A stretch of DNA of 64,000 bases from Bacteroidaceae bacterium (GCA_045630965.1 JAZQTU010000006.1:16567-80566); one strand, 5' to 3'. Positions 30,196-61,271 are shown, counted from the first letter of the stretch. A program made the numbers and translations. Notes: generated by a model not told the origin, from the sequence alone.

Positions 30196-30396
30196 TTAAT
30201 ACTTTTCCTCTTTCATTTTACAATCTCTTAATAGATGTTTCTCGTTTTTGCTTATGTATATGCTACATTTTATGAACAGTAGCAACGATGCTGTGAAGAT
30301 GATTGTGGATATGAGGTTATTGAAAAGATTTTCTGCTGTGCCTAACATGAGTATTAATCCGGCCAACTGTAAAGCTATTATAATTTTTGCATTCAT
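30196..30396 (-). CDS. Hypothetical small 2-TM membrane protein
   Basis: 66-aa ORF with two hydrophobic helices and a charged C-terminal tail (KNEKHLLRDCKMKEEKY). Confidence 0.4.
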   Translation of the reverse strand: MNAKIIIALQLAGLILMLGTAENLFNNLISTIIFTASLLLFIKCSIYISKNEKHLLRDCKMKEEKY

Positions 30397-30422
30397 GTTT
30401 TCTTGGTTTTTGTCAGTAAATA

Positions 30423-30794
30423 CTAAAATCTCCAGTAAATTAATTTTTCTGTTTTCGGGATGTTCCTTTTTGTAATGAGCGTCGCCTTTTCCAGTTCTTT
30501 GTTTTTCCTCATCAGTGTCACTTCGCCTATTACCTCTTCTTCGTCACAGTTCTTGTCAATTCTTACTTCAATCCTGTATCTGTCCGGTCCAACGGTCTTT
30601 ATTCTTCCTTTAAGAAAGTTCTGGACGTATTCCTCATTGATGTATCCTTCCTTGATGCTGTATATCTCAACAAGGTCGCTTCTGTTGCTGTTTTTGTGTT
30701 TTAACTTGAGCTTCAGATATTCCCAAAGTTCCATGATCTTTTCAAGAAACATTACGTAAAGATGTCTGCAATTGTTTATAACTCTGCTTTTCAT
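30423..30794 (-). CDS. Hypothetical cytoplasmic protein
   Basis: 123-aa ORF. It is the first gene of the minus-strand string, divergent from the repressor gene. No recognisable motif. Confidence 0.5.
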   Translation of the reverse strand: MKSRVINNCRHLYVMFLEKIMELWEYLKLKLKHKNSNRSDLVEIYSIKEGYINEEYVQNFLKGRIKTVGPDRYRIEVRIDKNCDEEEVIGEVTLMRKNKELEKATLITKRNIPKTEKLIYWRF

Positions 30795-30939: not shown

Positions 30940-30955
30940 TAGCCAAATATGGCTA
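30940..30955. promoter_or_regulatory. Palindromic operator candidate TAGCCAAATATGGCTA
   Basis: 6-bp inverted arms TAGCCA/TGGCTA in the divergent intergenic region upstream of the S24 repressor gene. A near-identical site lies at 56605-56620. Confidence 0.5.
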
Positions 30956-30992: not shown

Positions 30993-31010
30993 TTAGCTAA
31001 AATATGCTAA
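30993..31010. promoter_or_regulatory. Second, weaker palindrome TTAGCTAAAATATGCTAA
   Basis: Inverted arms TTAGC/GCTAA around an A/T-rich spacer, 34 nt upstream of the repressor ATG. It resembles the 30940 site. Confidence 0.25.
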
Positions 31011-31043: not shown

Positions 31044-31676
31044 ATGAAAAAAGACAATATAAAAGAGAGGGTAATTGCCGTATTGAAGTATAAAGGTCTT
31101 AACGTGAACAGAGCGAGCAGTATATTTGCAATGCCCCAACGTACATTGAACCGTCAAGTGAATGAAGATGGAAAGGTTGCGATGGAGCTTGTGTATGCCA
31201 TTCTTGATAATTTTCCTGAAATATCCCCTGCATGGCTCATAATGGGGGAGGGTGATATGTTGCGTGAGGAAAGTGTTGTAATGGAATGCGAAACGGCACC
31301 TTTTTACAGTGACATGCCGGTAAGCGCCGGTTTAAGAGAGGCGTTTGACCCTTCTCGTGAAAAAGCAAGTGGTTACATCTCGTTGCCTTCACAGAATGCG
31401 AGTTTCTATTTCCCCGTTTCCGGTACTTCTATGGAACCCGAAGTCTTTGCCGGTGACATTGTCGGAGTGGTAAGGGTTGAACCTGACGACAAGATAACTC
31501 CTGATGCCATATATATGATTGTAACAAATGATGCCAGAATGATCAAACATTGTTACATTGATGAGAATAATCATGAACTTTTATGGTGTGTGTCACCTAA
31601 TTATCCATCTTTCCCTATAAATAAATCGGACATATGTGCTATGTTCCGTGTTGTTTCAAGGATACAGTATTTCTGA
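31044..31676 (+). CDS. S24-peptidase (LexA/CI-type) phage repressor
   Basis: The ORF opens with TTG at 31038, and ATG at 31044 is preferred. The N-terminal HTH-like region reads GLNVNRASSIFAMPQRTLNRQV...ISPAWLIMGEGDM. The C-terminal S24 domain has Ser in VSGTSMEP and Lys in ARMIKHC. Confidence 0.8.
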   Translation: MKKDNIKERVIAVLKYKGLNVNRASSIFAMPQRTLNRQVNEDGKVAMELVYAILDNFPEISPAWLIMGEGDMLREESVVMECETAPFYSDMPVSAGLREAFDPSREKASGYISLPSQNASFYFPVSGTSMEPEVFAGDIVGVVRVEPDDKITPDAIYMIVTNDARMIKHCYIDENNHELLWCVSPNYPSFPINKSDICAMFRVVSRIQYF

Positions 31677-31747: not shown

Positions 31748-31984
31748 TCATTCGATACCCCGTAAGGTCTGTTGCAGAAGCACGCTGATATTTTCATCAC
31801 CCTGGTCTCGTTCCTTGTTCAACTTGACAAGAAAATCTGCAGTGGTTTTCAACGCCTGGTTTATTGTGCCCGGGTCTTCGCAGTTGAGAGTCAGTTTTTC
31901 CAGACGGCCTATCAGACGATGGAACAGAGCTAGTGTCTCGTTGTGTACATCGTCAAGTGTGACATTTTTCTTCTGTTTCTTCAT
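31748..31984 (-). CDS. Hypothetical small helical protein (78 aa)
   Basis: Divergent from the 32128 operon. It is preceded by one arm of the 18-bp inverted repeat. No recognisable motif. Confidence 0.5.
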   Translation of the reverse strand: MKKQKKNVTLDDVHNETLALFHRLIGRLEKLTLNCEDPGTINQALKTTADFLVKLNKERDQGDENISVLLQQTLRGIE

Positions 31985-32002
31985 TTCATTTATGTTTATC
32001 TG

Positions 32003-32114
32003 CTAAGTTATGGCGGATATAATCCTTTGTGGTTGCTGAAATGACAAAAGCATTCGCTGATGCTGCATTTTGTCATTTCAGCAACTTGATTCTTTCGTGA
32101 CCATGTTTCTTTTG
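32003..32114. promoter_or_regulatory. Divergent promoter region: perfect 18-bp inverted repeat carrying two TGTCATTTCAGCAAC boxes, each 21 nt from a -7-like box
   Basis: The arms are GTTGCTGAAATGACAAAA (32032-32049) and TTTTGTCATTTCAGCAAC (32068-32085). The plus side has TTCTTTTG at 32107-32114. The minus side has TAACTTAG (revcomp of 32003-32010). Confidence 0.6.
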
Positions 32115-32127
32115 CGTCAAAAAAACT

Positions 32128-32652
32128 ATGGCACTACCAATGATTTTGACAGGAATAAATGGGGCTTTGGGCCTCTATTCCACAATTAAGGGAATGATTG
32201 ATTCCCATGAGGCTAAAACAAAGCAGAACGCGTTACGTCAGGAAGCCCGTAACGAAGAGAATGCATGGTACAGAAGGAACTACTACGGCAATCTTATGGA
32301 TAACAAGGCCGCAAAGGCCGCCATAAAAAGGGTGGAGAATACCTTGCGCCGTAATAATGAAGAGGGGCGGGCGCGTAGTGTAATAACCGGTGCTACTCCT
32401 GAACATAACATTGCACGCAACGAGCAGGGACTACGTACAATGGAGAATGTTGTTGATAATCTTGCAGCCATTGACAGTAACGAAAAGAAAAGTATCGATG
32501 CTGCGCACAGGCAAAACAAAATCTCTATGATCAACAACGACCGTCAGCAACTTTCAATTGATGAGCGTATGGCCAAGAGTGCTGCATCAAACGGATACAA
32601 CCTTATGCAGAATGCCTTGTTGGGAGTGAACTGGGGAAAGGAGAAAAGATAA
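32128..32652 (+). CDS. Hypothetical virion-associated protein (174 aa)
   Basis: First gene of the operon that ends with the portal. It has a hydrophobic N-terminus followed by a long charged, Asn/Arg/Ala-rich helical sequence. Confidence 0.6.
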   Translation: MALPMILTGINGALGLYSTIKGMIDSHEAKTKQNALRQEARNEENAWYRRNYYGNLMDNKAAKAAIKRVENTLRRNNEEGRARSVITGATPEHNIARNEQGLRTMENVVDNLAAIDSNEKKSIDAAHRQNKISMINNDRQQLSIDERMAKSAASNGYNLMQNALLGVNWGKEKR

Positions 32653-32664
32653 TGTACATTGATT

Positions 32665-32955
32665 ATGAATGGAACTTATAAAGAAAATAAATCTGCGAAC
32701 TTTTGGGATGATTTTTTCAGGCGTCGGGAGAAAATGCTGCATGAACGGCAAGCCCGTGAATATGCTACGGGGGTTATTGGGCTGTTATCACAATTTCTTT
32801 CGCATAAAAAGCCAACAACTGAAACTGTTTCCAGTAAATCTTGTGGATATTTCTTCAACAAAGTGAATTGTATGCCCTGCTGCTATGCAGTCAGTATCAC
32901 TGCGGATATCTTGCCAGGGAAAGTAAAAAAGAACAGGATTAAAAGTAAAATTTGA
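32665..32955 (+). CDS. Hypothetical protein (96 aa)
   Basis: The ORF fills the gap between the 174-aa gene and the 1517-aa gene. ATG at 32665 is preferred, though the ORF opens with TTG at 32659. No motif. Confidence 0.45.
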   Translation: MNGTYKENKSANFWDDFFRRREKMLHERQAREYATGVIGLLSQFLSHKKPTTETVSSKSCGYFFNKVNCMPCCYAVSITADILPGKVKKNRIKSKI

Positions 32956-32958
32956 ATT

Positions 32959-35900
32959 ATGATATCAACGAACAATGACAATAGGAAAAAACGGAGTGAA
33001 AATAAAGATGTGTTCAATGCTGGCTATGAGAATGGGCTTTCGTTGAAAGGTATGGAATTTGGTGGAGAGGAACATGATATGTTTGCTACCGGGATGGATG
33101 CCATGAAAAGCCGTACGGCTGAAAAGTTGAACTATTTGACTGCTCCGGCTAATACCAAACAGCAGGAACTGGCCTTCAGGAACTCTTTTGCAGACTATAT
33201 GTTGCCTAAAGATTCTCAGGAACGTCATCGCAGGAATTATGCACTTTCAAGGGAGGCGCTCGATGATGTAGTCGGCGACTATTACAATAACAGCTTGAAA
33301 AGGAGATTTGAGATGAAGCGTGAGGATGCAAAAAGGGATGGTCGTAATGAATATATGCGTTATACATCTGTTCCTGGTGCCGACCCTGTCAATGCATACA
33401 AGGCTTCTGTGCGTGTCGATGATCCGGAGAGAGTTATTGATGAAACGATGAAAAGTGTGGACGATGATTATCTTATGAAACAGGTGGCGCCTTTGGCTTC
33501 GTATGGTGGCTATGATGCAAAGGAGTATGTCGATAATTTAGTAAAGCCGTCGTTGCGTGACAAAATGGTTAAAGAGTATATTGATGAAAATACTCCACGC
33601 AGCAGTGCTGAGTATGTCATGCGTTCTGCTTTTGACAATTCTCTAATGGGTAAAGTGGGGGCTCTTGGTTTGGCTGGGGATAAGTCTGCCAAGAGTAACC
33701 GTCTGCTTGCTTCCGAAGGAGTTGCCAATTATGATGCCAACAGAATGGAAAATTTTGCGGCAGGTGTCGGAGGTCTGCTTGTTGATACGCCTGCCTTTTC
33801 CGGTTTTGGAAGAGTCTCGGCTTCGATAGTGGGCAATGGAACCAGGAAGGCGGTTGAAAAGATTTCACGCAATGTCTTGTCGCGTTATAAGGACAGGCTT
33901 GTCAGCAAGGAATTCGCCGATGGCGTCGCACGCAAGGTTGTTGTAGAACGGCTGAAGAACCGCATAGTACAAGGTGCTACTGCTCAGGGTCTTACCCTTG
34001 GTGGGTATGACGTGGCAAACAGTGTGGCCGACGACATTCTTTATAACGGAACGGTCGATCCTGTCAAGGCTACAGGTTCTTTTGTCAAAGGATTTGCAAC
34101 GGGCGCGGCAGTTGGTGCTGTCGGTACATCAATGAGAGCACGCGTAAATGGCTTGACATCTGGAAAAAGATTGCTTTCCTCTGCGGGGGTGCTGAGCGCG
34201 GAGTCGGCTGTCTTTACAGCCGGAAGTGAACTGGACAAGCTGGCGCATGGTGTAGAGGTTGAGCCGATAGACCTGCTTTATGATTATGCAGAGAGTTCTG
34301 CAACTCTGCTTACAATGAGAATGGCCAATTGGCGTCCGAAAGGAGCTGCAGAAAAATTGGACAAGGAAGGGCATATAAAAGAAGAACTCAAACTCTCAAA
34401 ATCGCAAGCACAGGAACTTCGTGAGGCGAATGTCAATCCAGAAGAGTTTATGGAGATGATAGAACATGAATTGCGAATTCCTTCTCTCTCCAGCTCCGGT
34501 GCAAGATTGTTGAAGGAGAACTATGCCAAGCTAATGGCTGACAAGAACCTGTCTGCGGCTTCAAAATCAAAATTGATGTATCTTGTAGAGAATAAAATAA
34601 CATCTACACCGCCTGTGGTTTTTGATTATGAGGTTTCGCAAAATGAGCATGGAATATGGCTGGTGAAAATGCTTGATGCCGGCGGAGGGGTTGTTGAAAA
34701 TCTCTCTTTTGATAATGCCGGAGCTGCAAAAAGTCATCTCATTAAAGAGCGCGCAGGTATACGCAGGAACAGGATTGCTCATTTTGAAAATGAGTTGACT
34801 TCTGGTATCAATTCGTATAATTTTCTCCATGAAGCGGGGCTATATGCCAAAGAGAAGGGTGTCAGTGCCGACATCCTTGCTGAAGCAATGTACAAGAGTG
34901 CAAGAAAAGAACAACTCAATAGTACCGAGCAATTTATGATTGATGAGATTCTTGCCCGTTCATCGTATCATGAATCACAGATAAGCAGTGCGCTTTCAAA
35001 CGCAAGACGTAATATTGAAGAAAATTATAAGCTTGACAGAGGTGCTCTTTCGGCAATTGTCGACAAGCATTATTCGAATTGTACATTCACTGAAAATATG
35101 GCTCTTGACGAGTATGAGAACTTTGTACGTTCCGAGGTTGAAAGGATTAAGGAGCGTGCATCCGTGCCTCATCCTGCAGCGGTGCTCGGCATGAGCAATG
35201 CCGAAATCAAGCGTCGTGAGGCTGAAGAATACAATCAACGCCTGAATAATCGTCTTGCTGTGTCTGATGATGCGGTAACAAAACAGGATGCGGTTTTTGA
35301 AAAGTTGCGTGTTATTCCCGAAAACAGACCAGGACATGTCTGGAATGTTTATGGGCATGAGCTAAAGAAGGAGACTGTGGATGAGTATGAAAGACATGCG
35401 AGTGAGTTTTCAAGCAAGTTCGGTCAGGATATAGTATTCATTACAGACGAGCACCAGATTGAGAGACCAGCAGTAGAAACACCCGATGCTGTAAGAGAGT
35501 ACAACAACAGGCTGCATGCACTCGGTTGGGTCCATAAAGGAAAGGTGTATATAAACTTGCCGAATATTAAGGATCATGCTGAACTTGAAACTACAATAGT
35601 ACACGAAGTGGTGGGGCACCTTGGACTGAAGAAACTCTTTGGCCGTTATATGTATGACTTTATCGAGGATGTATACAAGAGCGCCGACGGTTCTGTAAGG
35701 CATGGCATAAACAAGATAAGGGATGCTTATGGCAAGACTGACATGTATACTGCAACAGAAGAGTATCTTGCAAGCCTTGTGGAAAAGGCGTATCCTAATG
35801 CTCAGGAGCGTAACCTTTTGGTCAGGTTCAAGGATTTTGTAAAAGGAATGCTTATAAGGCACAATATTTACAAGCCCAAGTATCGCAGAGTGAATGAAAA

Positions 35901-37512
35901 GGATTTACAGTCGATAATGGAAGCGCATTGCCGTTATGTGTTCAATAACAGGGATGCATCAAAACACCGTGGTGAGGTCTTTGGTAAATTCCGCAGTGCA
36001 ACTCTTGATGCTGAAGCTTATAGTAATCCGGATGATTATGCACGCCGTAAAAGGGATATGATACAGGAAGGCTCATATATGAAATGGACACCCGAAAAAT
36101 TCAAGGGGGCAAAATATCTTGTGAATTATCCCTATCTGCCTGCCAATATACAGGAAAGGATTATGAAGGAGACTGGAATGAGCGATGAGGCTCTTCGTAT
36201 GCAGAGTGAAGCGGCTAATTACCGTTTCGAGGGTAAGAAAGGAGCTAAAAACTACGGTAAAGCATATTATGAAGATATGGAAGAGGTGCTTGAGGATGCT
36301 GTATCCTTTGAGAAAGATGGTCTCTCTCCCTTGCAGATAAAGAAATTGACAGGCTGGGAGCGTGGCGCAGACGGTGAATGGCGTCGTGAAGTGTCGGAAT
36401 ATCCACGTCTGGTAAGAGATTATATATACGCTTCGCTGTTCGACAATAAACCGGAACTTGCAGAACTTTATAAAAAGATAAAGAAGGTGCCTTACGAAGC
36501 ATGGGGAGATACTGAAAAAGATGCTTGGGAGAGGGTTATGAAAGAGGGTAAACGTTATATGAAGAGGCCTGTTCTGCAGGATGTCGTCAACGACTTTGAA
36601 CTCTTTATCTCCTATCCCGAATTTGCAGCTATACCGGTAAGGATTGTTGAGGATGCTCCCTCGCTTGTACGTTACGACAGCAAGGCCAAGGAGATGGTAG
36701 TCGACAGGAAACTTTTTCTTTCTCCCGAGGCAAACGGCTATATGGCTGCAGCATTGCAGAATGTCATACAGGAGTATGAAGGGTTCAGCAAGGCGGTGTC
36801 GTTACGTCTGTTGTCGCTTGAAGGTAGGCTGGCAAAAAAATACAAGAATGCGCAGAAGTGCATTGCACTTGTAGACGGTGTGCGCAGAGAGTTGCCTTCC
36901 TTCGATGAGAATTCACAGATAGAACGCGCTTTTGAACGTGAATTTGGTATGGATATACAAACGTTCAAGAGAATGTATCCTACATACGATGACTATCTTT
37001 TCCATAAACTGACCGGGAAGAATTTCTCGTTCAGCGGTAATGTGGAGATGGAAAACGTACGCAAGCGTTACAAGATGAATGAAAAAGCCCGGAATTCTAC
37101 TCTTGCAGAAGAGACTGAATCGGTTCCTCGTGATAGGCAGGTGGTGGTAAAGAGGCTCGAAGACCTTGAAAAATATTTTACAGGACCGCTCGATGTTATT
37201 AACCGTTACGTGCACGATATACATTCTGACGAGCCTATGAAGGTGAGGTCGCTTGGAGGAAGGTTTGACAAGACAAAAGTGATGCCGGCCGAATTTGCTG
37301 AATTCGACAGTGAACTTGACAGTTATACCAAGTATCTTTTGCGTAATATGGTAAAGGAGAGGAGCGAAACCGGTGACTCTTACGGCTATAGGATGTATAA
37401 AGATCTAAAGGAACTTGGCAAAAAGGATATAAAGAAAAAGTTGGACAATTATGCAAAGGGTAGAGGTTGGTTCTGGAATATGAGTGATGATGACCTCAAT
37501 ATACTCAACTGA
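32959..37512 (+). CDS. Giant phage 'polyvalent'-type protein with zincin-like HExxH motif
   Basis: 1517-aa ORF immediately upstream of the portal gene. HEVVGH lies at 35602-35619 and TGWERGADGEWRRE at 36349-36390. Gly/Ala-rich hydrophobic segments span about aa 250-470. Confidence 0.6.
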   Translation: MISTNNDNRKKRSENKDVFNAGYENGLSLKGMEFGGEEHDMFATGMDAMKSRTAEKLNYLTAPANTKQQELAFRNSFADYMLPKDSQERHRRNYALSREALDDVVGDYYNNSLKRRFEMKREDAKRDGRNEYMRYTSVPGADPVNAYKASVRVDDPERVIDETMKSVDDDYLMKQVAPLASYGGYDAKEYVDNLVKPSLRDKMVKEYIDENTPRSSAEYVMRSAFDNSLMGKVGALGLAGDKSAKSNRLLASEGVANYDANRMENFAAGVGGLLVDTPAFSGFGRVSASIVGNGTRKAVEKISRNVLSRYKDRLVSKEFADGVARKVVVERLKNRIVQGATAQGLTLGGYDVANSVADDILYNGTVDPVKATGSFVKGFATGAAVGAVGTSMRARVNGLTSGKRLLSSAGVLSAESAVFTAGSELDKLAHGVEVEPIDLLYDYAESSATLLTMRMANWRPKGAAEKLDKEGHIKEELKLSKSQAQELREANVNPEEFMEMIEHELRIPSLSSSGARLLKENYAKLMADKNLSAASKSKLMYLVENKITSTPPVVFDYEVSQNEHGIWLVKMLDAGGGVVENLSFDNAGAAKSHLIKERAGIRRNRIAHFENELTSGINSYNFLHEAGLYAKEKGVSADILAEAMYKSARKEQLNSTEQFMIDEILARSSYHESQISSALSNARRNIEENYKLDRGALSAIVDKHYSNCTFTENMALDEYENFVRSEVERIKERASVPHPAAVLGMSNAEIKRREAEEYNQRLNNRLAVSDDAVTKQDAVFEKLRVIPENRPGHVWNVYGHELKKETVDEYERHASEFSSKFGQDIVFITDEHQIERPAVETPDAVREYNNRLHALGWVHKGKVYINLPNIKDHAELETTIVHEVVGHLGLKKLFGRYMYDFIEDVYKSADGSVRHGINKIRDAYGKTDMYTATEEYLASLVEKAYPNAQERNLLVRFKDFVKGMLIRHNIYKPKYRRVNEKDLQSIMEAHCRYVFNNRDASKHRGEVFGKFRSATLDAEAYSNPDDYARRKRDMIQEGSYMKWTPEKFKGAKYLVNYPYLPANIQERIMKETGMSDEALRMQSEAANYRFEGKKGAKNYGKAYYEDMEEVLEDAVSFEKDGLSPLQIKKLTGWERGADGEWRREVSEYPRLVRDYIYASLFDNKPELAELYKKIKKVPYEAWGDTEKDAWERVMKEGKRYMKRPVLQDVVNDFELFISYPEFAAIPVRIVEDAPSLVRYDSKAKEMVVDRKLFLSPEANGYMAAALQNVIQEYEGFSKAVSLRLLSLEGRLAKKYKNAQKCIALVDGVRRELPSFDENSQIERAFEREFGMDIQTFKRMYPTYDDYLFHKLTGKNFSFSGNVEMENVRKRYKMNEKARNSTLAEETESVPRDRQVVVKRLEDLEKYFTGPLDVINRYVHDIHSDEPMKVRSLGGRFDKTKVMPAEFAEFDSELDSYTKYLLRNMVKERSETGDSYGYRMYKDLKELGKKDIKKKLDNYAKGRGWFWNMSDDDLNILN

Positions 37513-37526
37513 TAAATTATGATGTT

Positions 37527-39431
37527 ATGAATAAGTTTCTTGATAAACGTGTCAAAGCGGGCACAAACATGCAGGTGCTTCCCGAAAAGAAGAGTTTCGG
37601 CGCAGCAAGGGAGTTTCTTGATGAATGTGCCGCCTGCTGGAATGCTCTTGATGAGGCTCGCCGCAAACTGCGGCGAAGCCTCATGTACAGCTACGGTGAC
37701 CAATGGGGTGACTATGTCACAGACCCAGACACTCTTTCTCAGATAACGGAAGGTGAACTGATTAAGAAAAACGGCAAGGTTCCGTTGAAGAACAACATGA
37801 TAGCCCCGATACTTAGTAATATCGATGGCCAATTACGCCAGAATCTCATGCGTCCGGTTTGTGTGGCACGTGACCAGACGGAATCCAAGGTCGGTGAGAT
37901 GATGTCTGTTGCGATAGAGTATGTCCATGACATCAATGAACTTGAAGAGTTGGATGCAGACTCAATGCGTATGCTGCTCAATGGCGGCATGATTGCCCAA
38001 AGGATAGAATACGGTGTAAATCCTGCAAAGGAACGTCGTGATGTGTGGGTGCATGGTGTCAATCCTTCGCGTCTGTTTTTCAATACCAATCTTGAGGATG
38101 TACGAATGTGGGATGTGACCTGTATCGGGGAAATTTTTGATTTGCCGCTTGATGAGGTCCTTGCACATTTTGGAACAACACCCGAAATGAAAACACTTAT
38201 TAAGGAGGCGTATGCACATGTCTCATCTTATGCCGACATCAACCGTGCCGTACAAGGTGACGAGTCGCGTAACCTTACGTTCTATACAGCGTCACGAAAG
38301 TCTCTCTGCCGTGTAATTCTCGGTTGGAAACTTGAATCGCGTGACGCCTACTATTGGAATGACGAGAAGAATGGTACATGGGGGTATTTGCCATATAATG
38401 ATGAGAGCAAAAAAGAACTTGATGAAGAGAATGAACGGCGTAGGCAGGAGAATTCTGGCAAGGGTGACGATGAGTTGTTGCTTGTCGATTACAGTTTTGC
38501 AACGGAACGTTACTGGTATTACCGTTATATGACTCCGTATGGTGACGTGCTTCAGGAAGGACGCAGTCCCTATTGGCATGGAGAACATAACTATGTCCTT
38601 CACATGTTTCCACTTGTACAGGGAAAACTGGGCAATTTCGTGGAGCAGTTCATTGACCAGCAGCGTGCAATCAACCGCACGGCTACACTTATTGATTTTA
38701 TTCGCGGTACCTCTTCGAAAGGTGTGCTTGTCGTTGACGACGATGCCTTTGAAAGCATGTCACGCGAGGATGTCATCGATGAGTATGTACGTTATAACGG
38801 CGTGCTTTTTGTCAAGCTCAAGCCGGGGCAGAGCATTGATGGTGTTGTGCGTCAGTACAATAGTGGAGCATCGGTTGCCGGTGACTTCGAATTGCTGAAC
38901 TTGCAGTTACGGTTGATAAATGAGATATCCGGTGTCAATTCGGCAATGCAGGGGCAGGCTCCAAAGGCTGGTACTCCGGCGTCATTATATGCCCAGCAGA
39001 TACAGAACTCGTCACTGAACCTTAAAGGGCTGTTTGACAGTTTCAGAACATTCCGTCGCCGTCGCGATACTAAAGTAATGAAGACGATACAACAGTTCTA
39101 CACCGAACAGCGTTATATCGATATTGCAGGCACACATTATTCTGAAGAGGCAAAATGGTATACCCCTGGAAAGGTACAGAATAGCGAAATTGACATTACC
39201 ATTTCCGAAGGTTACAATACTCCGGCATACCAGATGCTTGCAAATGATTTCCTTATGGAACTGTTCAGGTCGAATGCCGTGGATGTGAAGACAATGCTTG
39301 AGAATACTTCATTCCCATTTGCTGCCAAAATCCTTGAAGCTATAAAACGTAACGAGGAACAGCTAGCCAAAGGTGAACAACTCGAAGGTGTTCCTGAATA
39401 TTCACAAACAACTCCTATGCCAGCATTGTGA
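37527..39431 (+). CDS. Phage portal protein
   Basis: 634-aa ORF. The N-terminal LMYSYGDQWGDY... and NNMIAPILSNIDGQL blocks resemble podovirus-type portals. The acidic C-terminus and the size also fit. Confidence 0.65.
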   Translation: MNKFLDKRVKAGTNMQVLPEKKSFGAAREFLDECAACWNALDEARRKLRRSLMYSYGDQWGDYVTDPDTLSQITEGELIKKNGKVPLKNNMIAPILSNIDGQLRQNLMRPVCVARDQTESKVGEMMSVAIEYVHDINELEELDADSMRMLLNGGMIAQRIEYGVNPAKERRDVWVHGVNPSRLFFNTNLEDVRMWDVTCIGEIFDLPLDEVLAHFGTTPEMKTLIKEAYAHVSSYADINRAVQGDESRNLTFYTASRKSLCRVILGWKLESRDAYYWNDEKNGTWGYLPYNDESKKELDEENERRRQENSGKGDDELLLVDYSFATERYWYYRYMTPYGDVLQEGRSPYWHGEHNYVLHMFPLVQGKLGNFVEQFIDQQRAINRTATLIDFIRGTSSKGVLVVDDDAFESMSREDVIDEYVRYNGVLFVKLKPGQSIDGVVRQYNSGASVAGDFELLNLQLRLINEISGVNSAMQGQAPKAGTPASLYAQQIQNSSLNLKGLFDSFRTFRRRRDTKVMKTIQQFYTEQRYIDIAGTHYSEEAKWYTPGKVQNSEIDITISEGYNTPAYQMLANDFLMELFRSNAVDVKTMLENTSFPFAAKILEAIKRNEEQLAKGEQLEGVPEYSQTTPMPAL

Positions 39432-53034: not shown

Positions 53035-53080
53035 AATAGAAATCGGTTTCACACAAAATTGTGTGAAACCGATTTCTATT
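53035..53080. terminator. 46-nt perfect palindrome (22-bp stem) between convergent GH35 and terL
   Basis: AATAGAAATCGGTTTCACACAA AA-centre TTGTGTGAAACCGATTTCTATT. The right arm overlaps the terL stop codon (53079-53081). Confidence 0.75.
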
Positions 53081-55067
53081 ACATGCTCGCTTCGCTGACA
53101 ATCCTGCGTTTGCGTTTATTGGGGTTCTCTGTGGTGATTGGTGTGGGCAGTGGGTGGTTGTAGCATATCCACACTAATATGGCTGTTGCCATGACGCGGT
53201 CGTCATGGTTGCCTTCAATGGCGCCCATCTCTTTGCCGTTCTCCTTGTATTCGTAGAGGTCGAGTTCGTATGTTGTCTCAAGGCACCGTTCTATATATAA
53301 CCCGTCGCGCAAGGCCTTGATAAGGAAATTTATCACCATTGGTTTTGTGGAGCTGTTGGTGTGGAATCCCCACCGTCGTGGGCGTCCTTGCTTGACTTCC
53401 TGCAACGATGTACGGCAATAGAGGTTGCTGTATCTGCCCGATATTTCGTTCAGGATATACTCGAAGTTGTTGCCTTCGGTTCCTTCTGTCTCCAGCGTGT
53501 TGGCTTCTATCACAAGCAGGGCATTGTCGTATGCTCGTGCTATCTCCATGGCTTTCCATGCGAGCTTGTCATGTTCAATATGTCCGTGCCAGCATGCTGC
53601 AATCTCCGGCACTCCGCCGTCGGGCATTGCCCCACGGTCTGCTACCACTATGCATGAGTAGTCGGCTTTCTTGCTTGTTCCGCCTACATCTACAGTAACG
53701 ATGTATCTGTCGCGCATGTGCTGTCCGTCGTCGGGCATGAGCCACACGCGTAACATATCGCTTCCTTTGTCCTCACCCGGCAGGCACGGCACGAACTCAC
53801 TCTTGCCGTTTCGCGCGATGATCTCACCTACGAATAGCGGTGGGACGCAGTTCTCTCTAGCGTCGTTGACATACATTGTGCGGAATACTCTCCGTCCTGT
53901 GCTTTGGAACGCTTCGTTGGCTGTTGAAGGAAACTCGGAAAAGAGACGCCACTCGTCGGGCATCTCACGGCGTTTGTCGCGGTACCATGCAATGGCTTCA
54001 AGGGTAGCACCCAGCCTGAACAGCTCGTGCTCATATTCATCCATGCTACCGATGAATGCGCTGTAATCATTTTCTTTCATTGGCTTGCTGTAGAGGTCTA
54101 TGCTGAACCATGGAATAAATACAGGGGTGAAGTTGTTACGCTTTTCTGTGGCATCAATCCATGTTCTGTGAAAGAAATTTCCTACTCCCTTGGCTGTTGA
54201 TTCAATGACTTTCATTGTATAGGGTCCGCTGGCTATTGAACCGAATATTGACTGTACAAGGTCTTCGGGTTTTCGTCCGTGTGTGGCTTTCCACAAGCCA
54301 ACTTCGGTGAGGTGTGCCATGCTTATATCTTCACTTCTCAGGGAGTCGGGCTTTTGTGCCGACCCAAGCGAATAACGGCTGTTGCTCCAGCTTATGACAC
54401 GTGTCTTCTGTGCTCCTTGATAGGGCGAAGTTGTAAGCTGTTTGCCGCCTGTTGCCCATGTGGGGTAGCGCGAAATTACCTTTGCGAGCATTCCTGCCAC
54501 AATTGATGACTGTTTCTCTATGTCGCCACAGATGACGCTGTTCCAGTTGTTTTTGTGGACAAGCTGTATCCATAACATGTACAGCTGCGTCAGGGTAGAA
54601 CCACCCCATTGGCGTGCCTTGCATAAAATGATGTCTATCGGCTTTCCGGCAAGGCGCAACTCTTCCATGGCTTTCAGGTATATGCGTTGCGGACGGTTGA
54701 GGGTGAAGGCTGTGTCGCGTCCTTTGCCTTTGTCCGAAATTGTTGTCATGCTTCTTGCCCAATACTCAAAGTCATGCCTTATGCGTAACAGGCAAAAGTT
54801 GAGCCATAACTTTATAATGTTCCTGTTGTTCGCCTCCTGGCCGGCAATTTCATTGAGGTAGTGCTCGGCACCAAGCTCTGCAATCTGTTGTACAACCGGT
54901 TCGTCAAGCATGCTTGTAGGAAGGTTTATCTTTTCTATAGGAAATCCTTCCATTGTAACCCAGCTGCGTGGCACGGACATTGATCCTTCGCCTGTTATAG
55001 GATTATAAACGGCAGAGATTTCTCTCAGCCGTTCTCTATTCTTCTCTATGATTTTTTCTTTGTCCAT
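53079..55067 (-). CDS. terL: Terminase large subunit
   Basis: 662-aa ORF with Walker-A-like ILCKARQWGGSTLTQ. The C-terminal RNase-H-like nuclease has IVTVDVGGTSKKADYSCIVVADR and the terminal ...EGNHDDRVMATAILVW motif typical of TerL. Confidence 0.8.
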   Translation of the reverse strand: MDKEKIIEKNRERLREISAVYNPITGEGSMSVPRSWVTMEGFPIEKINLPTSMLDEPVVQQIAELGAEHYLNEIAGQEANNRNIIKLWLNFCLLRIRHDFEYWARSMTTISDKGKGRDTAFTLNRPQRIYLKAMEELRLAGKPIDIILCKARQWGGSTLTQLYMLWIQLVHKNNWNSVICGDIEKQSSIVAGMLAKVISRYPTWATGGKQLTTSPYQGAQKTRVISWSNSRYSLGSAQKPDSLRSEDISMAHLTEVGLWKATHGRKPEDLVQSIFGSIASGPYTMKVIESTAKGVGNFFHRTWIDATEKRNNFTPVFIPWFSIDLYSKPMKENDYSAFIGSMDEYEHELFRLGATLEAIAWYRDKRREMPDEWRLFSEFPSTANEAFQSTGRRVFRTMYVNDARENCVPPLFVGEIIARNGKSEFVPCLPGEDKGSDMLRVWLMPDDGQHMRDRYIVTVDVGGTSKKADYSCIVVADRGAMPDGGVPEIAACWHGHIEHDKLAWKAMEIARAYDNALLVIEANTLETEGTEGNNFEYILNEISGRYSNLYCRTSLQEVKQGRPRRWGFHTNSSTKPMVINFLIKALRDGLYIERCLETTYELDLYEYKENGKEMGAIEGNHDDRVMATAILVWICYNHPLPTPITTENPNKRKRRIVSEASM

Positions 55068-55127
55068 GTTGGATCGTGTTCCATTTTTTATATTGCAAGG
55101 AGAACTTGCCCATGCAGTATCATCTTT

Positions 55128-55604
55128 TTATATCCCGGCGAGGTCGGTTGCTCGGCGGCGTATCCTGCGCCTGCCGTATATCTTTGCGAACATCTGCTGT
55201 ACGTTGCTGTAGAGTGCTGCGCGTAGCGATATATGACTTTGTGCCATTTCGGGACGGCGCGTAAGCAACCATTGTGCTGTAACTTCATTGACAAGGTAAT
55301 CCGTTATTGATTGCTGCAACAATGGCAATAGGTAGCTCGGGTATTCACACTCTGTCTCAAATGTTATTCCCAACTCATCGTTGTCTGTGGATGTTGATAT
55401 AAAAGGGAAACGGAGTGCAACGGCAGTAACCAGCTCGTTACATGCCTTTGTCATGAACATGTAAAGCAGTTCTTCATCATCTTTGCTACTTTGTATGGTG
55501 ACGGCATCGATATCCTTGCGCTTTGCCGCCTCTCCCATGTAATAGTTCCTTAAATCAATCTGCCGTAGCAGTCCGTCTTTCCCTATAATAATTGTGTTTT
55601 TCAT
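55128..55604 (-). CDS. Hypothetical phage protein (158 aa), paralog of 55616-56086; Arg-rich C-terminus
   Basis: Located immediately upstream of terL, a position compatible with a small terminase or head-completion role. Ends with ...YGRRRIRRRATDLAGI. Confidence 0.6.
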   Translation of the reverse strand: MKNTIIIGKDGLLRQIDLRNYYMGEAAKRKDIDAVTIQSSKDDEELLYMFMTKACNELVTAVALRFPFISTSTDNDELGITFETECEYPSYLLPLLQQSITDYLVNEVTAQWLLTRRPEMAQSHISLRAALYSNVQQMFAKIYGRRRIRRRATDLAGI

Positions 55605-55615
55605 AGTCTGTTCCT

Positions 55616-56086
55616 TTATGGCTTTTTACGCAGTGCAAGCAGTTCCTGCAACTGTTTCATGCATAGCTGTATCTTGCCTGCCGAAAGGTTGGCATCGTCG
55701 CTTTTGACAAGAATATACCATTGTTGCATGCATCTGTTGAATACAATGTTCGTTATGATGTCTTCAAGTGCTTCGGTAACTCCCTCAGGATAATTGGCTG
55801 GAATAGTTATGCAAAAGCGGTGAATCCTGTAAAGGTTGTTATCCTGTTCTGTGTCGTGCGAAACTGTACATTCACCTAAATAATGTCCTATGGTAACAGC
55901 ACACTCGTTGATTGCTGTCAATACATAATCGTCAAAGAGCCTTTTGTCGTCATCTGTCATTATTAATCTTGCCGACAGCTTTGACGGTTGTCCGGCGCTT
56001 TCCTTTACAAGCGCGCTCTTGCCGCTTTCGTTCTTCATTCTTTCAAAAAGCCTTTTGTCGCTTATACTGATTTCTATCTCCTTCAT
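55616..56086 (-). CDS. Hypothetical phage protein (156 aa), paralog of 55128-55604
   Basis: It shares a collinear pattern with its neighbour: an acidic stretch, A.NE..(V/T)T, a YP motif, I(T/I).(Y/I).(V/F)N, then QW(L/Y). Confidence 0.6.
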   Translation of the reverse strand: MKEIEISISDKRLFERMKNESGKSALVKESAGQPSKLSARLIMTDDDKRLFDDYVLTAINECAVTIGHYLGECTVSHDTEQDNNLYRIHRFCITIPANYPEGVTEALEDIITNIVFNRCMQQWYILVKSDDANLSAGKIQLCMKQLQELLALRKKP

Positions 56087-56150
56087 CCTTTCTCTGTTTT
56101 GTTATTGCACAAAGGTATATATGTCGTTGGCTGTGAAGTTTGCTGTTTTG

Positions 56151-56579
56151 CTAATTCAAGGCAAATTCTCTGTTGCGTTGGCGTATCGTCTTGTAGATTA
56201 TACCTCTGAAGGTCTCCTCTTCAAGGTAGAATGACGGTGCCGGTTCTTCAATAATCTTTTCAAGGATAATATATTTGTAGCGCTTGCTGCAATCTTTTAC
56301 CTGTTGCTTGTATCTGCGGTATATCTCCTTGTACATGGCAATCTTGTTCTCGTTGACTATCGGTAGTTTCTTCTTTCGCGATAACAACGAAACGAACCTT
56401 CGTGCATTCTCAAATGTAACATAGAAACGCGGAGCCTTGCTCTTTACAGCGTACTCAATCACTTCGTTCTGCGTTGCGAACGGCCTTGTTTTTCGTACCT
56501 CCTTGTACGATTCGTAGAAACTGTTGATTACATCCTGTTTACGCATCTCGCGAACAGAATTGTTCATGGTGTTTTTCAT
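56151..56579 (-). CDS. Hypothetical basic protein (142 aa), first gene of packaging operon
   Basis: The ORF opens at 56642, but the ATG at 56579 (MKNTMNNS...) lies 17 nt downstream of a perfect TACTTTTG -7 box. Lys/Arg-rich, and possibly DNA-binding or a small terminase. Confidence 0.55.
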   Translation of the reverse strand: MKNTMNNSVREMRKQDVINSFYESYKEVRKTRPFATQNEVIEYAVKSKAPRFYVTFENARRFVSLLSRKKKLPIVNENKIAMYKEIYRRYKQQVKDCSKRYKYIILEKIIEEPAPSFYLEEETFRGIIYKTIRQRNREFALN

Positions 56580-56596: not shown

Positions 56597-56639
56597 CAAA
56601 AGTATAGCCGAAAATGGCTAATAGTTTGCTGTTTTGACA
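56597..56639 (-). promoter_or_regulatory. Packaging-operon promoter: TGTCAAAACAGCAAA box, TAGCC-N6-GGCTA palindrome, TACTTTTG -7 box
   Basis: The minus strand reads TGTCAAAACAGCAAA (56639-56625), then a 20-nt spacer containing the palindrome (plus strand TAGCCGAAAATGGCTA, 56605-56620), then TACTTTTG (56604-56597). The ATG at 56579 follows 17 nt later. Confidence 0.6.
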
Positions 56640-56770: not shown

Positions 56771-56815
56771 TTGTCATTTCAGCAACCTTCTCGGGCTTTT
56801 CGTGTTGTTCCTTTG
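56771..56815 (+). promoter_or_regulatory. Head-operon promoter: TTGTCATTTCAGCAAC box + TTCCTTTG -7-like box
   Basis: The 16-nt string at 56771-56786 is identical to 32070-32085. After a 21-nt spacer comes TTCCTTTG (56808-56815), and the ATG at 56837 follows 21 nt later. Confidence 0.6.
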
Positions 56816-56836: not shown

Positions 56837-57619
56837 ATGGAAAAGAATTTCAACAAAGAAAAGAACGGCGCTTACGGCATGTCTGCTGTAGGCAATGGGA
56901 AAATCACTGCTCTTCATGAGCCACTAGCGGAACAGAACGCCTATTCGGCTCTTGACAGTGAACTCAAGAAAATGTTCGGCGAGGGTTTCGAACTCTCCGA
57001 CAGGTTATCACAGGATTTGCTTTTGCAGCATCTTCGTACGAATAGGGAACAGAATGAGCGTCTTGCCGGTATGCTTGAACGTGATCCTCGTCTGGCACAG
57101 TTGCTGACCGATGTTGTCAGTGGCAAGCGCAACGCTCACAGTGCCATGGCGCGCTATTTCGGTACTTCGTTCATGACTGTCGACGAGGACAGCCCTGAAT
57201 TTGAGGAGATAATGCTTGCCGACGAGGAACGAAAGGAGGAGATGATGCGTCTTGCAAACGACCGTAATGAGTATGAACGAAACCTTGCAGAGAGTGTACC
57301 TGTCATTGAAGAATTCTGCAAAGGGAAGGGCTATGATGCCTCTGACTTCATGGACAGGGTGTGGGAGTCACTTGTCTTTCCAATTCTGGCAGGAAAATAC
57401 ACTAACGAGGTGTGTGTGGCTCTCGATCATGCGGTCACATATGAGAAGGATGTCGAGGATGCCTTTATTGCCGGTGACATAAAGGGACGCAATACGAATA
57501 TCCAGCGTATGAAGGAGAATTTTGGGGACGGTATGCCAAAGGGAATGAGCAGCGTTGCTCCCGATACAGAAATAAAGCGCAAAAGGAATTCTCTTATCGA
57601 CAAGGCTCTTAATGCCTGA
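56837..57619 (+). CDS. Scaffolding-like protein
   Basis: The ATG at 56837 (MEKNFNKEK...) is preferred over the ORF opening at 56771. About 260 aa, acidic and helical (Glu/Asp/Arg/Leu-rich). It sits directly upstream of the capsid-like gene. Confidence 0.45.
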   Translation: MEKNFNKEKNGAYGMSAVGNGKITALHEPLAEQNAYSALDSELKKMFGEGFELSDRLSQDLLLQHLRTNREQNERLAGMLERDPRLAQLLTDVVSGKRNAHSAMARYFGTSFMTVDEDSPEFEEIMLADEERKEEMMRLANDRNEYERNLAESVPVIEEFCKGKGYDASDFMDRVWESLVFPILAGKYTNEVCVALDHAVTYEKDVEDAFIAGDIKGRNTNIQRMKENFGDGMPKGMSSVAPDTEIKRKRNSLIDKALNA

Positions 57620-57657
57620 TTGTAAAAAACTCAATTATTAACCTATAAAATTTTACT

Positions 57658-59277
57658 ATGAAAAAAATCATTTCATTCTTGAGGGAGAACCCTCTGTTTG
57701 TAATCATGTCGCTCGCAGCTATCGCATGCTACATTTGGGGTGACGCTGTCAGTGGTATAATAATGGCCGGTGTCAATCTCATGCCTGCCGGGTCGCCAAA
57801 ACCTTCAACCGGTATTGCCGGTTTGCCAACGCAGGGGCTTGGAGAGGCCACTACTGTTTCCAATGCCAGTGAACTAGGCAATGATCTCATTGAAGCCGAT
57901 ACTGATGACCAGATTATTGGCATTGCAAGTGACGAAAGTGTCATCGATACCATTAAGCGCAGGATACGCCGTCAGGTGCGAGTGAACTCATTTGAAGTAG
58001 ACCACTATCTTATCGACGACAAACGTTCCAAGGCCTACACTAACGCAACCTATACAGGTATGAACGCAACACGTGCCGAAATTCCATTCTCAACAACAGG
58101 AGAGAGAAAAATCTTCCAGCAGTACTATACGGCTATCTGTAAGGGTGTCAATGGTTATGACCCGACAGGACAGATAGAGCTTTCGGGAGTCGACCTCATG
58201 CTGTTCTTCGTGGATAAGAACACGACAAGCGAAGCGCCTATTGCCATGGCTGTCAACGGTCCTAAGATAAATGCAACCGATGAGTACTGCGTGATTCCTA
58301 CAATTCCTATGGGTACAGAGATTATTTTGCTCTCTTCGGCAGCATACGAGACACAGAAGTTTATCGCTCCCTCTACAATTGTACCTGTGCCTGAACGCAT
58401 GTACTTGCAAAAACAGTTATGCAACAGCATTGTGAGTGACTATTTCGCTGCACAGAAAAAACGCATCCAGTTCAGCGAGGCACAGATTGCAGAAGCTGTG
58501 TTGCGTCAGTTCCGTCTTGAGAGTTGCCGTACAGCGTGGGTCGGACAGCCCGGAAAGTTTAAGGTACAGGCTATGGACAACGCTATGGGTTATCAGTGGG
58601 ATTACTTCTCAAAAGGTATCCGTTGGCAGTTCAAGCGTCAGTACGATCTCTCTTCGAATATCACATTTGCTGATTTAATCAACCTATCAATGGTGAAGTT
58701 CACAGGTTTCAATTGTACCAAGCGTGCAATATGGCTGTTGGGTAAGCAGTTGTTGAATGATATTCAGAAAATAGACCTGACACTGCACAAGAATATCAGT
58801 GTCACCGGCGACAAGGTTTTTGGTATCGAGTGTACAAAAATACACACAGTGTTCGGTGATATCGACCTCATCCACGATCCTACTCTCGATGCCCTTGGCT
58901 ATGCTCACTGTGGTGGTCTTATTGATGAGAACGGTCTTGTGCGCTACTATATGAAGAACGAGGATGCAAAAACCGAAAATGTCGACGGTGAAGAGGCTAA
59001 ACGCGAGGTTGTTATGACTATCGACTGCTTGTGTCTTAAGGGATATTCTCATATCTGGGTGAACGGCTCTTCTGCCGAAAGCGATATTCCAGGTGCATCG
59101 CGCGTGACAAGTTCTGACAGTTTGCCGTCATCGCCGAATATCAACGATGTGGTAATCCTTACCGCCGATGTCAACCATGAGGTGAATGGTGAGAGCAAGA
59201 AGTGGTTCTGTGCCGGTTCTGTTGTCGCTTTCAACGGAAAGACTTGGGTGGAATATACTGGCGAGATTTTGGTGTAA
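57658..59277 (+). CDS. Major capsid protein candidate
   Basis: 539-aa ORF following the scaffold-like gene and ending at a strong terminator, a typical placement for an MCP. No fold assignment is possible by eye. Confidence 0.55.
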   Translation: MKKIISFLRENPLFVIMSLAAIACYIWGDAVSGIIMAGVNLMPAGSPKPSTGIAGLPTQGLGEATTVSNASELGNDLIEADTDDQIIGIASDESVIDTIKRRIRRQVRVNSFEVDHYLIDDKRSKAYTNATYTGMNATRAEIPFSTTGERKIFQQYYTAICKGVNGYDPTGQIELSGVDLMLFFVDKNTTSEAPIAMAVNGPKINATDEYCVIPTIPMGTEIILLSSAAYETQKFIAPSTIVPVPERMYLQKQLCNSIVSDYFAAQKKRIQFSEAQIAEAVLRQFRLESCRTAWVGQPGKFKVQAMDNAMGYQWDYFSKGIRWQFKRQYDLSSNITFADLINLSMVKFTGFNCTKRAIWLLGKQLLNDIQKIDLTLHKNISVTGDKVFGIECTKIHTVFGDIDLIHDPTLDALGYAHCGGLIDENGLVRYYMKNEDAKTENVDGEEAKREVVMTIDCLCLKGYSHIWVNGSSAESDIPGASRVTSSDSLPSSPNINDVVILTADVNHEVNGESKKWFCAGSVVAFNGKTWVEYTGEILV

Positions 59278-59295
59278 CATAACTTTCTTTTCAAT

Positions 59296-59335
59296 GACAC
59301 CCGGAGGCTCTTTGGGGTAATCCGGGTGTCTTTTT
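59296..59335 (+). terminator. Rho-independent terminator/attenuator after capsid-like gene
   Basis: 10-bp stem GACACCCGGA / TCCGGGTGTC followed by TTTTT. Confidence 0.8.
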
Positions 59336-59354
59336 ATTAAAAACAATATCAGAT

Positions 59355-59789
59355 ATGAAAAAGAGAATAACATACGAGATTCATGGACAGATTGAACGCA
59401 ATAGTTATTTCCGCATAGGCAAGGCTCTTGTGCGTATAGAATTCAGTGGTGGTGCAATAAACTCCACAGGTGTCTATCCGGCACAGTATGTCACCGACAA
59501 TCCATTGTTCCAGAAAGCAATTGAGAGCAGCGATGCTTACCAAAAAGGTGAAATAAAACGAGGAAGGGTAGAAGTGATAGAAGAAACCGGCAAGGATGAA
59601 AATGCTGATGCCGGAACAGTATTGCATGAAACCTCTTTGGCTGTATTTCCCGAAGTACAGAATATGCAGCAGGCACGTTCCGTTTTAATGGATGAACCGT
59701 ACAACTGTACTCTTGCCCAGCTTCAGAACAAGAATATGATAAAGGCTGTGGCGTTGGAGAAGGGTGTCACATTTCCTAACTGGTTATGA
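59355..59789 (+). CDS. Hypothetical virion protein (144 aa)
   Basis: The ORF overlaps the next gene by 4 nt (ATGA coupling). No recognisable motif. Confidence 0.55.
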   Translation: MKKRITYEIHGQIERNSYFRIGKALVRIEFSGGAINSTGVYPAQYVTDNPLFQKAIESSDAYQKGEIKRGRVEVIEETGKDENADAGTVLHETSLAVFPEVQNMQQARSVLMDEPYNCTLAQLQNKNMIKAVALEKGVTFPNWL

Positions 59790-60430: not shown

Positions 60431-60444
60431 TAATTGTAAATATT

Positions 60445-61267: not shown

Positions 61268-61271
61268 ATAT

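Follow-up and report, generated by a model that had tools for sequence, protein, structure and literature searches.

The pyocins of Pseudomonas aeruginosa are controlled through a P box of ATTGnn(n)GTnn(n) repeats that lies well upstream of the promoter, with PrtN as activator and PrtR as repressor. The PBSX element of Bacillus subtilis depends on the repressor Xre and on Xpf, a sigma-like positive control factor encoded inside PBSX, and the middle promoters of phage T4 combine a MotA box with sigma appropriation by AsiA. The gene transfer agent (GTA) of Rhodobacter capsulatus (RcGTA) forms a regulon under GafA and CtrA, with head-tail, fibre, and lysis genes at dispersed loci (PMC12946183). 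Here we describe a putative promoter box in a stretch of 64,000 nucleotides (nt) from a Bacteroidaceae bacterium (GCA_045630965.1, JAZQTU010000006.1:16567-80566; this whole stretch is called the window), where it heads the structural and packaging operons of a phage-derived gene set that is split into two blocks, A and B.

At the sequence level, the box and its genes belong to none of these four systems. The pyocin system is similar in that one upstream box stands over scattered loci for phage-derived particles and soluble toxins, and in that the cascade is headed by an S24-type, LexA/CI-like repressor encoded beside a small gene. It differs in phylum and promoter architecture, and the box described here is single, asymmetric, and placed at the −33 position. 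The window boxes show no ATTGnn(n)GTnn(n) repeats, and Pfam and NCBIfam revealed no PrtN-like domain in a 123 amino acid (aa) protein of block A. PBSX is a defective DNA-packaging particle whose late operon needs a repressor-gated sigma factor resembling those of extracytoplasmic function (ECF), which parallels the reading favoured below; however, it is one contiguous locus with xpf inside, whereas no sigma gene lies in or near the present element. T4 middle promoters likewise keep the housekeeping downstream element intact and carry, at a fixed distance from it, a box in place of a −35-type element, but no MotA or AsiA homologues were detected, and to see an AsiA analogue in the helical 78-aa protein described below is speculative. 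RcGTA shares with the element domesticated phage genes at several loci, the lack of replication and integration genes, co-regulation in trans, and fibre and lysis functions encoded outside the main cluster (PMC12946183). Its proteins and motif are unrelated, and it is siphovirus-like, whereas the element described here is podovirus-like with a P22-like portal.

Geometry of the predicted box-headed promoters

Our results showed that TGTCAnnnCAGCAA occurs exactly four times in the 64-kb window, against about zero copies expected, and that all copies lie in two divergent intergenic regions. The pattern search gave four exact matches to TGTCANNNCAGCAA (32046-32033 and 56639-56626 on the minus strand, 32071-32084 and 56772-56785 on the plus strand). 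With at most one mismatch there were seven matches versus a shuffle mean of 1.88, and seven was reached in 0 of 100 shuffles. Matches with two mismatches were at chance level, apart from a fifth box, B2−, at whose position three relatives (L238, L240, and L251) have consensus-like copies; it stands 21 nt before a perfect −7 box, followed by the ATG of the 156-aa gene at 56086. When a looser box pattern was combined with a −7 box, only five promoters matched in the window, and the four loose matches without a −7 box were all within open reading frames. The boxes and their downstream elements are the following.

32032..32046, minus strand: box A−, TGTCATTTCAGCAAC, promoter of the 78-aa gene; kept in L232, L236, L244, L247, and L248-250
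32003..32010, minus strand: −7-like box of promoter A−, TAACTTAG, 21 nt 3′ of the box; TAnnTTTG in most relatives
32071..32085, plus strand: box A+, TGTCATTTCAGCAAC, promoter of the 174-98-1517-portal operon (sequence read and pattern search)
32107..32114, plus strand: −7-like box of promoter A+, TTCTTTTG; invariant in all relatives
56625..56639, minus strand: box B−, TGTCAAAACAGCAAA, promoter of the 142-156-158-terminase operon (sequence read and pattern search)
56597..56604, minus strand: −7 box of promoter B−, TACTTTTG (sequence read)
56139..56153, minus strand: fifth, degenerate box B2−, TAGCAAAACAGCAAA (two mismatches), a promoter within the terminase operon, ahead of the 156-aa gene
56110..56117, minus strand: −7 box of promoter B2−, TACCTTTG, a perfect match
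56772..56786, plus strand: box B+, TGTCATTTCAGCAAC, promoter of the 260-539-144-214-161-127-~950 aa operon (sequence read and pattern search)
56808..56815, plus strand: −7-like box of promoter B+, TTCCTTTG; invariant in relatives

The original prediction, made from this DNA alone, had placed such a box upstream of a −7-like element at the head of all four divergent units of both blocks. Most of its description stood: the spacers (21 nt for A+ and B+, 20 nt for B−), the −7-like boxes at 32107-32114, 56604-56597, and 56808-56815, and the ATGs at 32128, 56579, and 56837 were confirmed. So were the identical 16-mer at 32070-32085 and 56771-56786 and, by sequence read, the perfect 18-bp inverted repeat of block A (32032-32049 and 32068-32085, with an 18-nt gap). 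The minus-strand copy of block A had been given 3 nt off, since its 15-mer is at 32046-32032 and not at 32049-32035; with the position corrected, 21 nt lead to TAACTTAG at 32010-32003 and 18 nt more to the ATG at 31984, as predicted. The box does head the four units, but block A has two more, the S24 repressor gene and the operon of the 123- and 66-aa genes, that lack a full box. The similar A-rich leaders are presumably an ordinary feature of 5′ untranslated regions in Bacteroidetes.

For Bacteroides, passages of PMC7366714 that cite Bayley (2000) and Vingadassalom (2005) describe a promoter of the housekeeping sigma factor, sigma(ABfr), with a TTTG at −33 and TAnnTTTG at −7. The window promoters share the downstream element: TACTTTTG and TACCTTTG fit it perfectly, as do most copies in relatives, and the deviations are a T at position 2 in TTCTTTTG and TTCCTTTG and an A at position 7 in TAACTTAG. 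They differ at −33, where the TTTG gives way to CAGCAAC(C), preceded by TG(T/G)CA. In the five window promoters and in all relatives, TTTG was absent from its expected place and CAGCAA(C) was found instead. Measured from CAGCAA, the distance to T(A/T)nnTT(T/A)G is 21-22 nt in all five window promoters, which agrees with the 19-21 nt given for the canonical promoter in those passages (PMC7366714), and the ATG follows 13-23 nt on. The box thus occupies the position of the −33 element, as had been proposed. About 20 host promoters in the window have T-rich sequence or TTTG at that position, and none has the box. If transcription starts at the usual distance from the −7 box, the box covers about −48 to −30. 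Its rigid spacing, single orientation, and asymmetry point to a putative promoter element that positions RNA polymerase.

Conservation of the box and nature of the phage-derived element

Eleven related chromosomal loci were compared (proteins 60%-90% identical), and all of these relatives are metagenomic contigs. The box consensus over 26 non-redundant promoter instances from ~9 lineages was tttTGtCAttaCAgCAAcCTt, which describes a bipartite box of 15-19 bp, TG(T/G)CA-W3-(C/T)A(G/A)CAAC(CTT). Box and spacing are kept in the relatives, while flanks and spacer are randomised. The values below are somewhat inflated because the instances were gathered with a loose pattern.

Upstream flank: 0.2 bit per position; 0.22-0.49 identity within orthologous promoters
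Box: 1.5 bit per position; 0.76-0.89 identity within orthologous promoters
Spacer: 0.3 bit per position; 0.28-0.58 identity within orthologous promoters
−7 region: 1.0 bit per position; 0.50-1.00 identity within orthologous promoters

The loose pattern matched nearly all orthologous sites, with the exception of the internal promoter B2−, which is present in some lineages only. The synonymous sites of neighbouring genes are saturated (proportion of synonymous differences, pS, 0.61-0.86), so that unconstrained intergenic sequence should have randomised; strong constraint on the box in the relatives is supported by these comparisons. No further box plus −7 sites were found in ~220 kb of related loci, roughly half of which is host DNA.

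The gene order of the set varies among the loci as follows.

L236: contiguous terL...142 / 260...956 / 66, 132 / S24 / 80 / 175...1519
L238, L240, L242, and L251: terL...950, 66, 123, S24, then the ATP synthase operon
L249 and L250: S24, atp operon, 80 / 176...portal, ligA
L232: lrgA, 158, 66, 123, S24, atp operon, 260...866, 80 / 175...
L244, L247, and the window: 80 / 173...portal, ligA, dapA, DUF2400

In every rearranged locus each unit retains its box; an example is the 260-aa operon of L232, which lies behind the ATP synthase operon. The proposal that the box ties separated modules into one regulon gains from this, since each module keeps the box in genomes with different separations.

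The window itself is Bacteroidota chromosome (tyrS, tRNA-Lys, lrgAB, ligA, dapA, malic enzyme, rsmG, rmuC, trpS, and a GH35 beta-galactosidase gene), and an Rfam scan returned the tRNA-Lys only. The phage-derived blocks occupy 29182-39431 (A) and 53079-64000 (B), with 13.6 kb of housekeeping genes between them. On its minus strand block A carries genes for 158-, 129-, 66-, and 123-aa proteins and the 78-aa gene, and on its plus strand the S24 LexA/CI-like repressor gene and the genes for 174- and 98-aa proteins, a 1517-aa LPD23 protein, and the P22-like portal. The minus strand of block B encodes the large terminase and proteins of 158, 156, and 142 aa. The box-driven units and the hairpin beside them are listed here.

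31748..31984, minus strand: 78-aa gene, a monocistronic box-driven unit; 79%-90% identical in relatives
32128..39431, plus strand: operon A+, 174 aa, 98 aa, 1517 aa (LPD23), P22-like portal
53079..56579, minus strand: operon B−, 142, 156, and 158 aa, then the large terminase (662 aa)
56837..64000, plus strand: operon B+, 260 aa (scaffold-like), 539 aa (capsid-like), 144, 214, 161, 127, and ~950 aa
31693..31739, no strand: terminator-like hairpin (20-bp stem) where the S24 and 78-aa genes converge

The ~950-aa tail-like gene of operon B+ starts at 61272 and extends past the window end. The hairpin is likely a bidirectional terminator; the scan that accompanied this prediction looks for sigma-70-type promoters, which is unsuited to Bacteroidetes, and its terminator output alone was used.

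More distant relatives, found in IMG/VR through portal and capsid, are true phages (L001-L024, 55%-63% identity). In those whose portal is 55%-63% identical, the portal gene lies next to the terminase gene and converges with it, and blocks A and B are therefore complementary parts of one phage-type set. The strict box is absent from L001-L024; their promoter of the 260-aa type has only a box-like TAACATTATAACAT, 22 nt before TTACTTTG. A megablast of both blocks against GenBank phages gave no match.

Integrase and replication domains were found neither in the window's blocks nor conserved with the set in relatives, and a tyrosine-recombinase-like gene occurs only in L251-L254 (~13005-14204), directly 3′ of the terminase gene, and not in the window. 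The portal-ligA-dapA-DUF2400 junction is conserved in six loci, and the junction on the trpS side also recurs. Portal identity (81%-89%) tracks ligA identity (82%-92%), and the proportion of nonsynonymous differences (pN) is 0.07-0.09 for the portal, terminase, and capsid-like genes, close to the 0.05-0.07 of ligA and dapA. Together, the junctions, the co-divergence of portal and ligA, the pN values, and the lack of a conserved integrase form, in the genomes compared, the pattern expected of a vertically inherited, selected, phage-derived system and not of a prophage. The two blocks are thus neither two phages nor an ordinary prophage; they are modules of one such set. As in GTAs, structural and packaging genes are split, replication and integration genes are missing, and inheritance is vertical under purifying selection. 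Since terminase and portal are both kept, the gene content suggests that DNA packaging is retained; the element would then be GTA-like, and it is a candidate for a domesticated system of this kind in Bacteroidaceae.

Several other features of these loci were recorded. The holin/antiholin-like genes lrgB and lrgA (27998-29049) adjoin block A in the window and also in L232. The 66-aa protein (30196-30396) is a small membrane protein, the 161-aa protein (60427-60912) has a weak match to a phage holin, and no endolysin was recognised among the element proteins. A giant protein of more than 3300 aa is encoded upstream of the portal in L001-L023 (~1-10000 in each); its counterparts in the chromosomal element are versions of 1318-1519 aa with the LPD23 domain. 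A more distant phage-like locus with a box promoter (L325, ~3835-8373) encodes a tail-like protein that is 31%-34% identical, and has genes like those of 158/156 aa.

Candidate readers of the box

Homologues of the 260-, 174-, and 142-aa proteins were numerous in metagenome assemblies labelled Bacteroidaceae. The box plus −7 pattern serves as a search tag in the form TGKCAWWWYARCAAC-N20-22-TWNNTTWG. The metagenome scan used the reverse complement of TGKCAWWWCAGCAACC-N19-21-TWNNTTTG, for which a rough estimate gives ~5-10 chance matches, and it returned 108 matches at 98 loci, ~51 of them upstream of element genes. The matches were distributed as shown below.

174-aa type element homologues: 17 matches
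260-aa type element homologues: 13 matches
78-aa type element homologues: 10 matches
156/158-aa type element homologues: 10 matches
142-aa type element homologues: 1 match
Six other recurring families: ~33 matches; set among ordinary host genes, away from any element genes
Chance-like matches inside coding sequence: ~10-20

The box had been called element-specific, and this has to be given up, as about one third of the 108 matches head the six families outside the element. These include DUF6973 proteins (168-170 aa and 437 aa) and a 93-94-aa protein upstream of a GT2 glycosyltransferase gene. The DUF6973 box loci are L139 (5367-6738), L269 (150-726), L274, L276, and L312. Behind the 437-aa gene come two paralogous, immunity-like lipoprotein genes, an arrangement that recalls a toxin with its immunity genes. 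Alternatively, DUF6973 might supply the lysin that the element seems to lack; the literature searched contained nothing on this domain. Another box-driven family, of 576-712 aa (L316 1626-3764, L322 5330-7060, L286, and L345), matches the tail protein of L001 (18360-21422), a true-phage relative, with 37%-49% identity over its C-terminal ~230 aa. Its genes have leaders of 110-130 nt in which a conserved hairpin and T-run may form an attenuator. When IMG/VR (83 loci) and GTDB (at least 120 matches) were scanned for the exact 16-mer, essentially chance matches inside coding regions were obtained, and among the genome matches listed the only meaningful one was L139, of the DUF6973 class.

In four of the non-element loci, genes for ECF-type sigma factors that score above the TIGR02937 cut-off lie divergently, just upstream of the box.

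L322, 4505-5050: ECF-type sigma gene
L287, 1130-1603: ECF-type sigma gene
L272, 1830-2291: ECF-type sigma gene
L294, 10988-11485: ECF-type sigma gene

Homologues of these sigma factors in IMG/VR were also considered and set aside, being of a generic kind and associated with neither boxes nor element genes.

The repressor gene of block A has a different set of conserved sites around it.

31044..31676, plus strand: S24 (LexA/CI-like) repressor gene; no box upstream
30196..30794, minus strand: 123-aa and 66-aa (membrane) genes in the "Cro position", divergent from the S24 gene
30940..30955, no strand: palindrome TAGCCAAATATGGCTA, abutting the −7 box of the 123-aa gene promoter; nearly invariant in six lineages
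30993..31010, no strand: second conserved palindrome of the switch region, TTAGC-N8-GCTAA
56605..56620, no strand: palindrome TAGCCATTTTCGGCTA, filling the spacer of promoter B−; conserved in L236, L238, L240, and L251

The promoter of the 123-aa gene has the 3′ half of the box alone (CTACAAC), 20 nt before TATATTTG. The palindrome in the spacer of promoter B− reads TAGCCA-N4-YGGCTA, as in the S24 switch region. An operator of the LexA/CI kind is palindromic and stands at the repressor's own promoter; TAGCCA-N4-TGGCTA has both properties and the box has neither. TAGCCA-N4-TGGCTA and TTAGC-N8-GCTAA are thus probably the S24 operators, and S24 is very probably not what binds the box, because its own switch region has no full box and carries these near-invariant palindromes instead. 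S24 would act through separate palindromic operators, one set at its own switch region and one in the terminase-promoter spacer. The latter palindrome, kept in relatives, points to a second, direct SOS-type lock on packaging, by which the operator inside this spacer would add SOS-type gating to the terminase operon.

The small proteins of the element had been suggested as partners of the box. Neither domain searches nor models gave support for the 78- and 142-aa proteins as box binders. Searches of Pfam, PHROGs, NCBIfam, and PDB sequences returned nothing informative for the 78-, 123-, and 142-aa proteins. The 78-aa protein is the most conserved lineage-specific product (79%-90% identity), with a nearly invariant core and its own box, and AlphaFold2 models it as a helical hairpin (predicted local distance difference test, pLDDT, 73). 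It is a possible regulatory candidate, for example by binding RNA polymerase or sigma. The terminase operon opens with the gene for the 142-aa protein (56151-56579, minus strand), in which AP(R/S)FY motifs mark an internal duplication. Its confident model (pLDDT 84) shows two H-H-E-H repeats and has no Foldseek match in PDB or BFVD. The protein is conserved even in true-phage relatives, which mostly lack the box.

The earlier proposal of an activator or alternative sigma factor is still the right kind of explanation for a box that replaces the −33 element. We tentatively favour, at a little below even confidence, a −33-replacing promoter element that defines a regulon and is read by a dedicated ECF-type sigma factor. 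Such a sigma, encoded outside the element, would read the GCAAC(CTT) part through its region 4 as a −35-type element, which we take to resemble the AAC-type −35 of ECF promoters; (C/T)A(G/A)CAAC, often followed by CTT, was indeed found at an invariant spacing of 21-22 nt. The reading also draws on the ECF-type sigma genes, only 29%-40% identical to one another, that adjoin the box at the four non-element loci, on the finding that S24 alone among the element proteins has a recognisable DNA-binding or sigma domain, and on the precedent of PBSX and Xpf. Several observations weigh against it. No conserved CGT, as in an ECF-type −10, lies 16-17 nt after the AAC, and the sole conserved downstream element is T(A/T)nnTTTG, which resembles the housekeeping sigma(ABfr) −7 box. 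The TG(T/G)CA block, at about −48 to −44, is outside the normal footprint of sigma region 4. A search of the window, and of the DNA up to 10 kb from the element in the 11 relatives, turned up no sigma gene, and sigma genes adjoin the box at only 4 of ~12 tail-fibre-like loci. An activator of class II type, bound to the box and making up for the missing −33 contact while RNA polymerase with sigma(ABfr) holds the −7 box, is a serious though rather doubtful possibility, with the 123-aa protein as the activator. This would follow the PrtR/PrtN/P-box logic of pyocins. It would account for −7 boxes that fit the housekeeping consensus, and for a bipartite box of 15-19 bp that is longer than a sigma −35 and centred at about −41 if transcription starts at the usual distance. 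The S24 gene and the divergent 123/66-aa operon look like a CI/Cro switch, with palindromic operators and no full box, and the 123-aa protein is the sole soluble product of the S24-controlled operon. Up to 10 kb from the portal, no 123-aa, 66-aa, S24, or 78-aa gene turned up in the true-phage relatives, most of which lack the box. However, the box is not palindromic, and no DNA-binding domain was detected in the 123-aa protein. The 123-aa protein is just 35%-59% identical among relatives although the boxes are nearly invariant, no S24 or 123-aa genes occur near the non-element box loci, and the ECF sigma genes beside box promoters would be left unexplained.

The other explanations are much less probable. 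That the box is a generic variant of host promoters, marking no special regulon, is very improbable: ~1/3 of the metagenomic matches do precede genes without an element homologue, but these belong to a few recurring families (one of them tail-fibre-like) and not to a random gene sample, the box is in 0 of ~20 host promoters of the window, and no site lies in the ~100 kb of host sequence that surrounds the element in relatives. We consider it very improbable that the box is itself an S24 operator through which every structural operon is repressed directly by occlusion of the −33 region. The repressor gene is only 400 bp from the boxes of block A, and these form the 18-bp inverted repeat, which would suit an operator; a single box is asymmetric, though, and the distance between the centres of the arms is 39 bp in block A and 146 bp in block B. 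The switch region has invariant TAGCCA-N4-TGGCTA and TTAGC-N8-GCTAA in place of a box, in promoter B− the TAGCCA palindrome is distinct from the box and lies next to it, and there are box promoters at loci that lack a neighbouring S24 gene. Least probable of all is that the copies are duplication remnants or recombination sites (an invertible segment or att-like sites) with no promoter role. Copies are inverted in both intergenic regions, and the breakpoints of module rearrangement fall at unit boundaries. The −7 boxes are outside the inverted repeats, however, so that an inversion would switch nothing, and the block A arms are just 18 nt apart. In all copies and lineages the box keeps a fixed spacing to the −7 box amid randomised adjacent sequence, and no recombinase is conserved with the element, an integrase being present only in L251-254. 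Nor is an invertible promoter seen in the window, given the place of the −7 boxes and the lack of a recombinase in both blocks.

A sigma-54 promoter (TGGCAC-N5-TTGCW) was considered separately and rejected. The GC lies 8 bp after the GG position, where 10 bp are required, most box copies have GT rather than GG, and a −7 box follows 22 nt downstream.

A possible box-defined regulon in Bacteroidaceae

We know of very few cis-regulatory elements in Bacteroidota beyond the −33/−7 promoter, and of none for phage-derived particles. In the window, a cis element of fixed geometry, conserved in relatives, heads the packaging, head/tail, portal/ejection, and 78-aa units. With a dedicated ECF-type sigma as reader, the box would switch on all these structural operons jointly, and also the further dispersed loci that it heads, with tail-fibre-like genes and DUF6973 toxin- or lysin-like genes. 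The motif, the −33-replacing geometry in a Bacteroidetes promoter, and the controlled gene set appear to be undescribed, and the regulated element is potentially more novel than the box itself. No description of a GTA in Bacteroidales was found in the literature searched, and the known GTAs listed in PMC12946183 include none from this order.

The box-marked operons and the tail-fibre-like and toxin-like genes may constitute one co-regulated, GTA-like particle system. In its widest form the proposal is of an undescribed regulon in uncultured Bacteroidaceae, in which a sigma factor or activator coordinates a scattered, vertically inherited, podovirus-derived DNA-packaging system with an S24 SOS-type switch on top; we put this forward with some doubt. 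Its modules would be packaging, head/tail, portal/ejection, tail fibres, and toxin- or lysin-like genes, an assignment that is likewise plausible but short of probable. If true, this would be the first GTA-like system in the phylum Bacteroidota.

The box is a tag with which genomes and metagenomes can be searched for every module of this dispersed, apparently domesticated phage gene set and for its accessory loci, and it offers a direct experimental handle on its reader. If the product is a DNA-packaging particle, GTA-like biology would be extended to a dominant phylum of the gut and rumen, with an example of a host that holds scattered viral modules under one switch.

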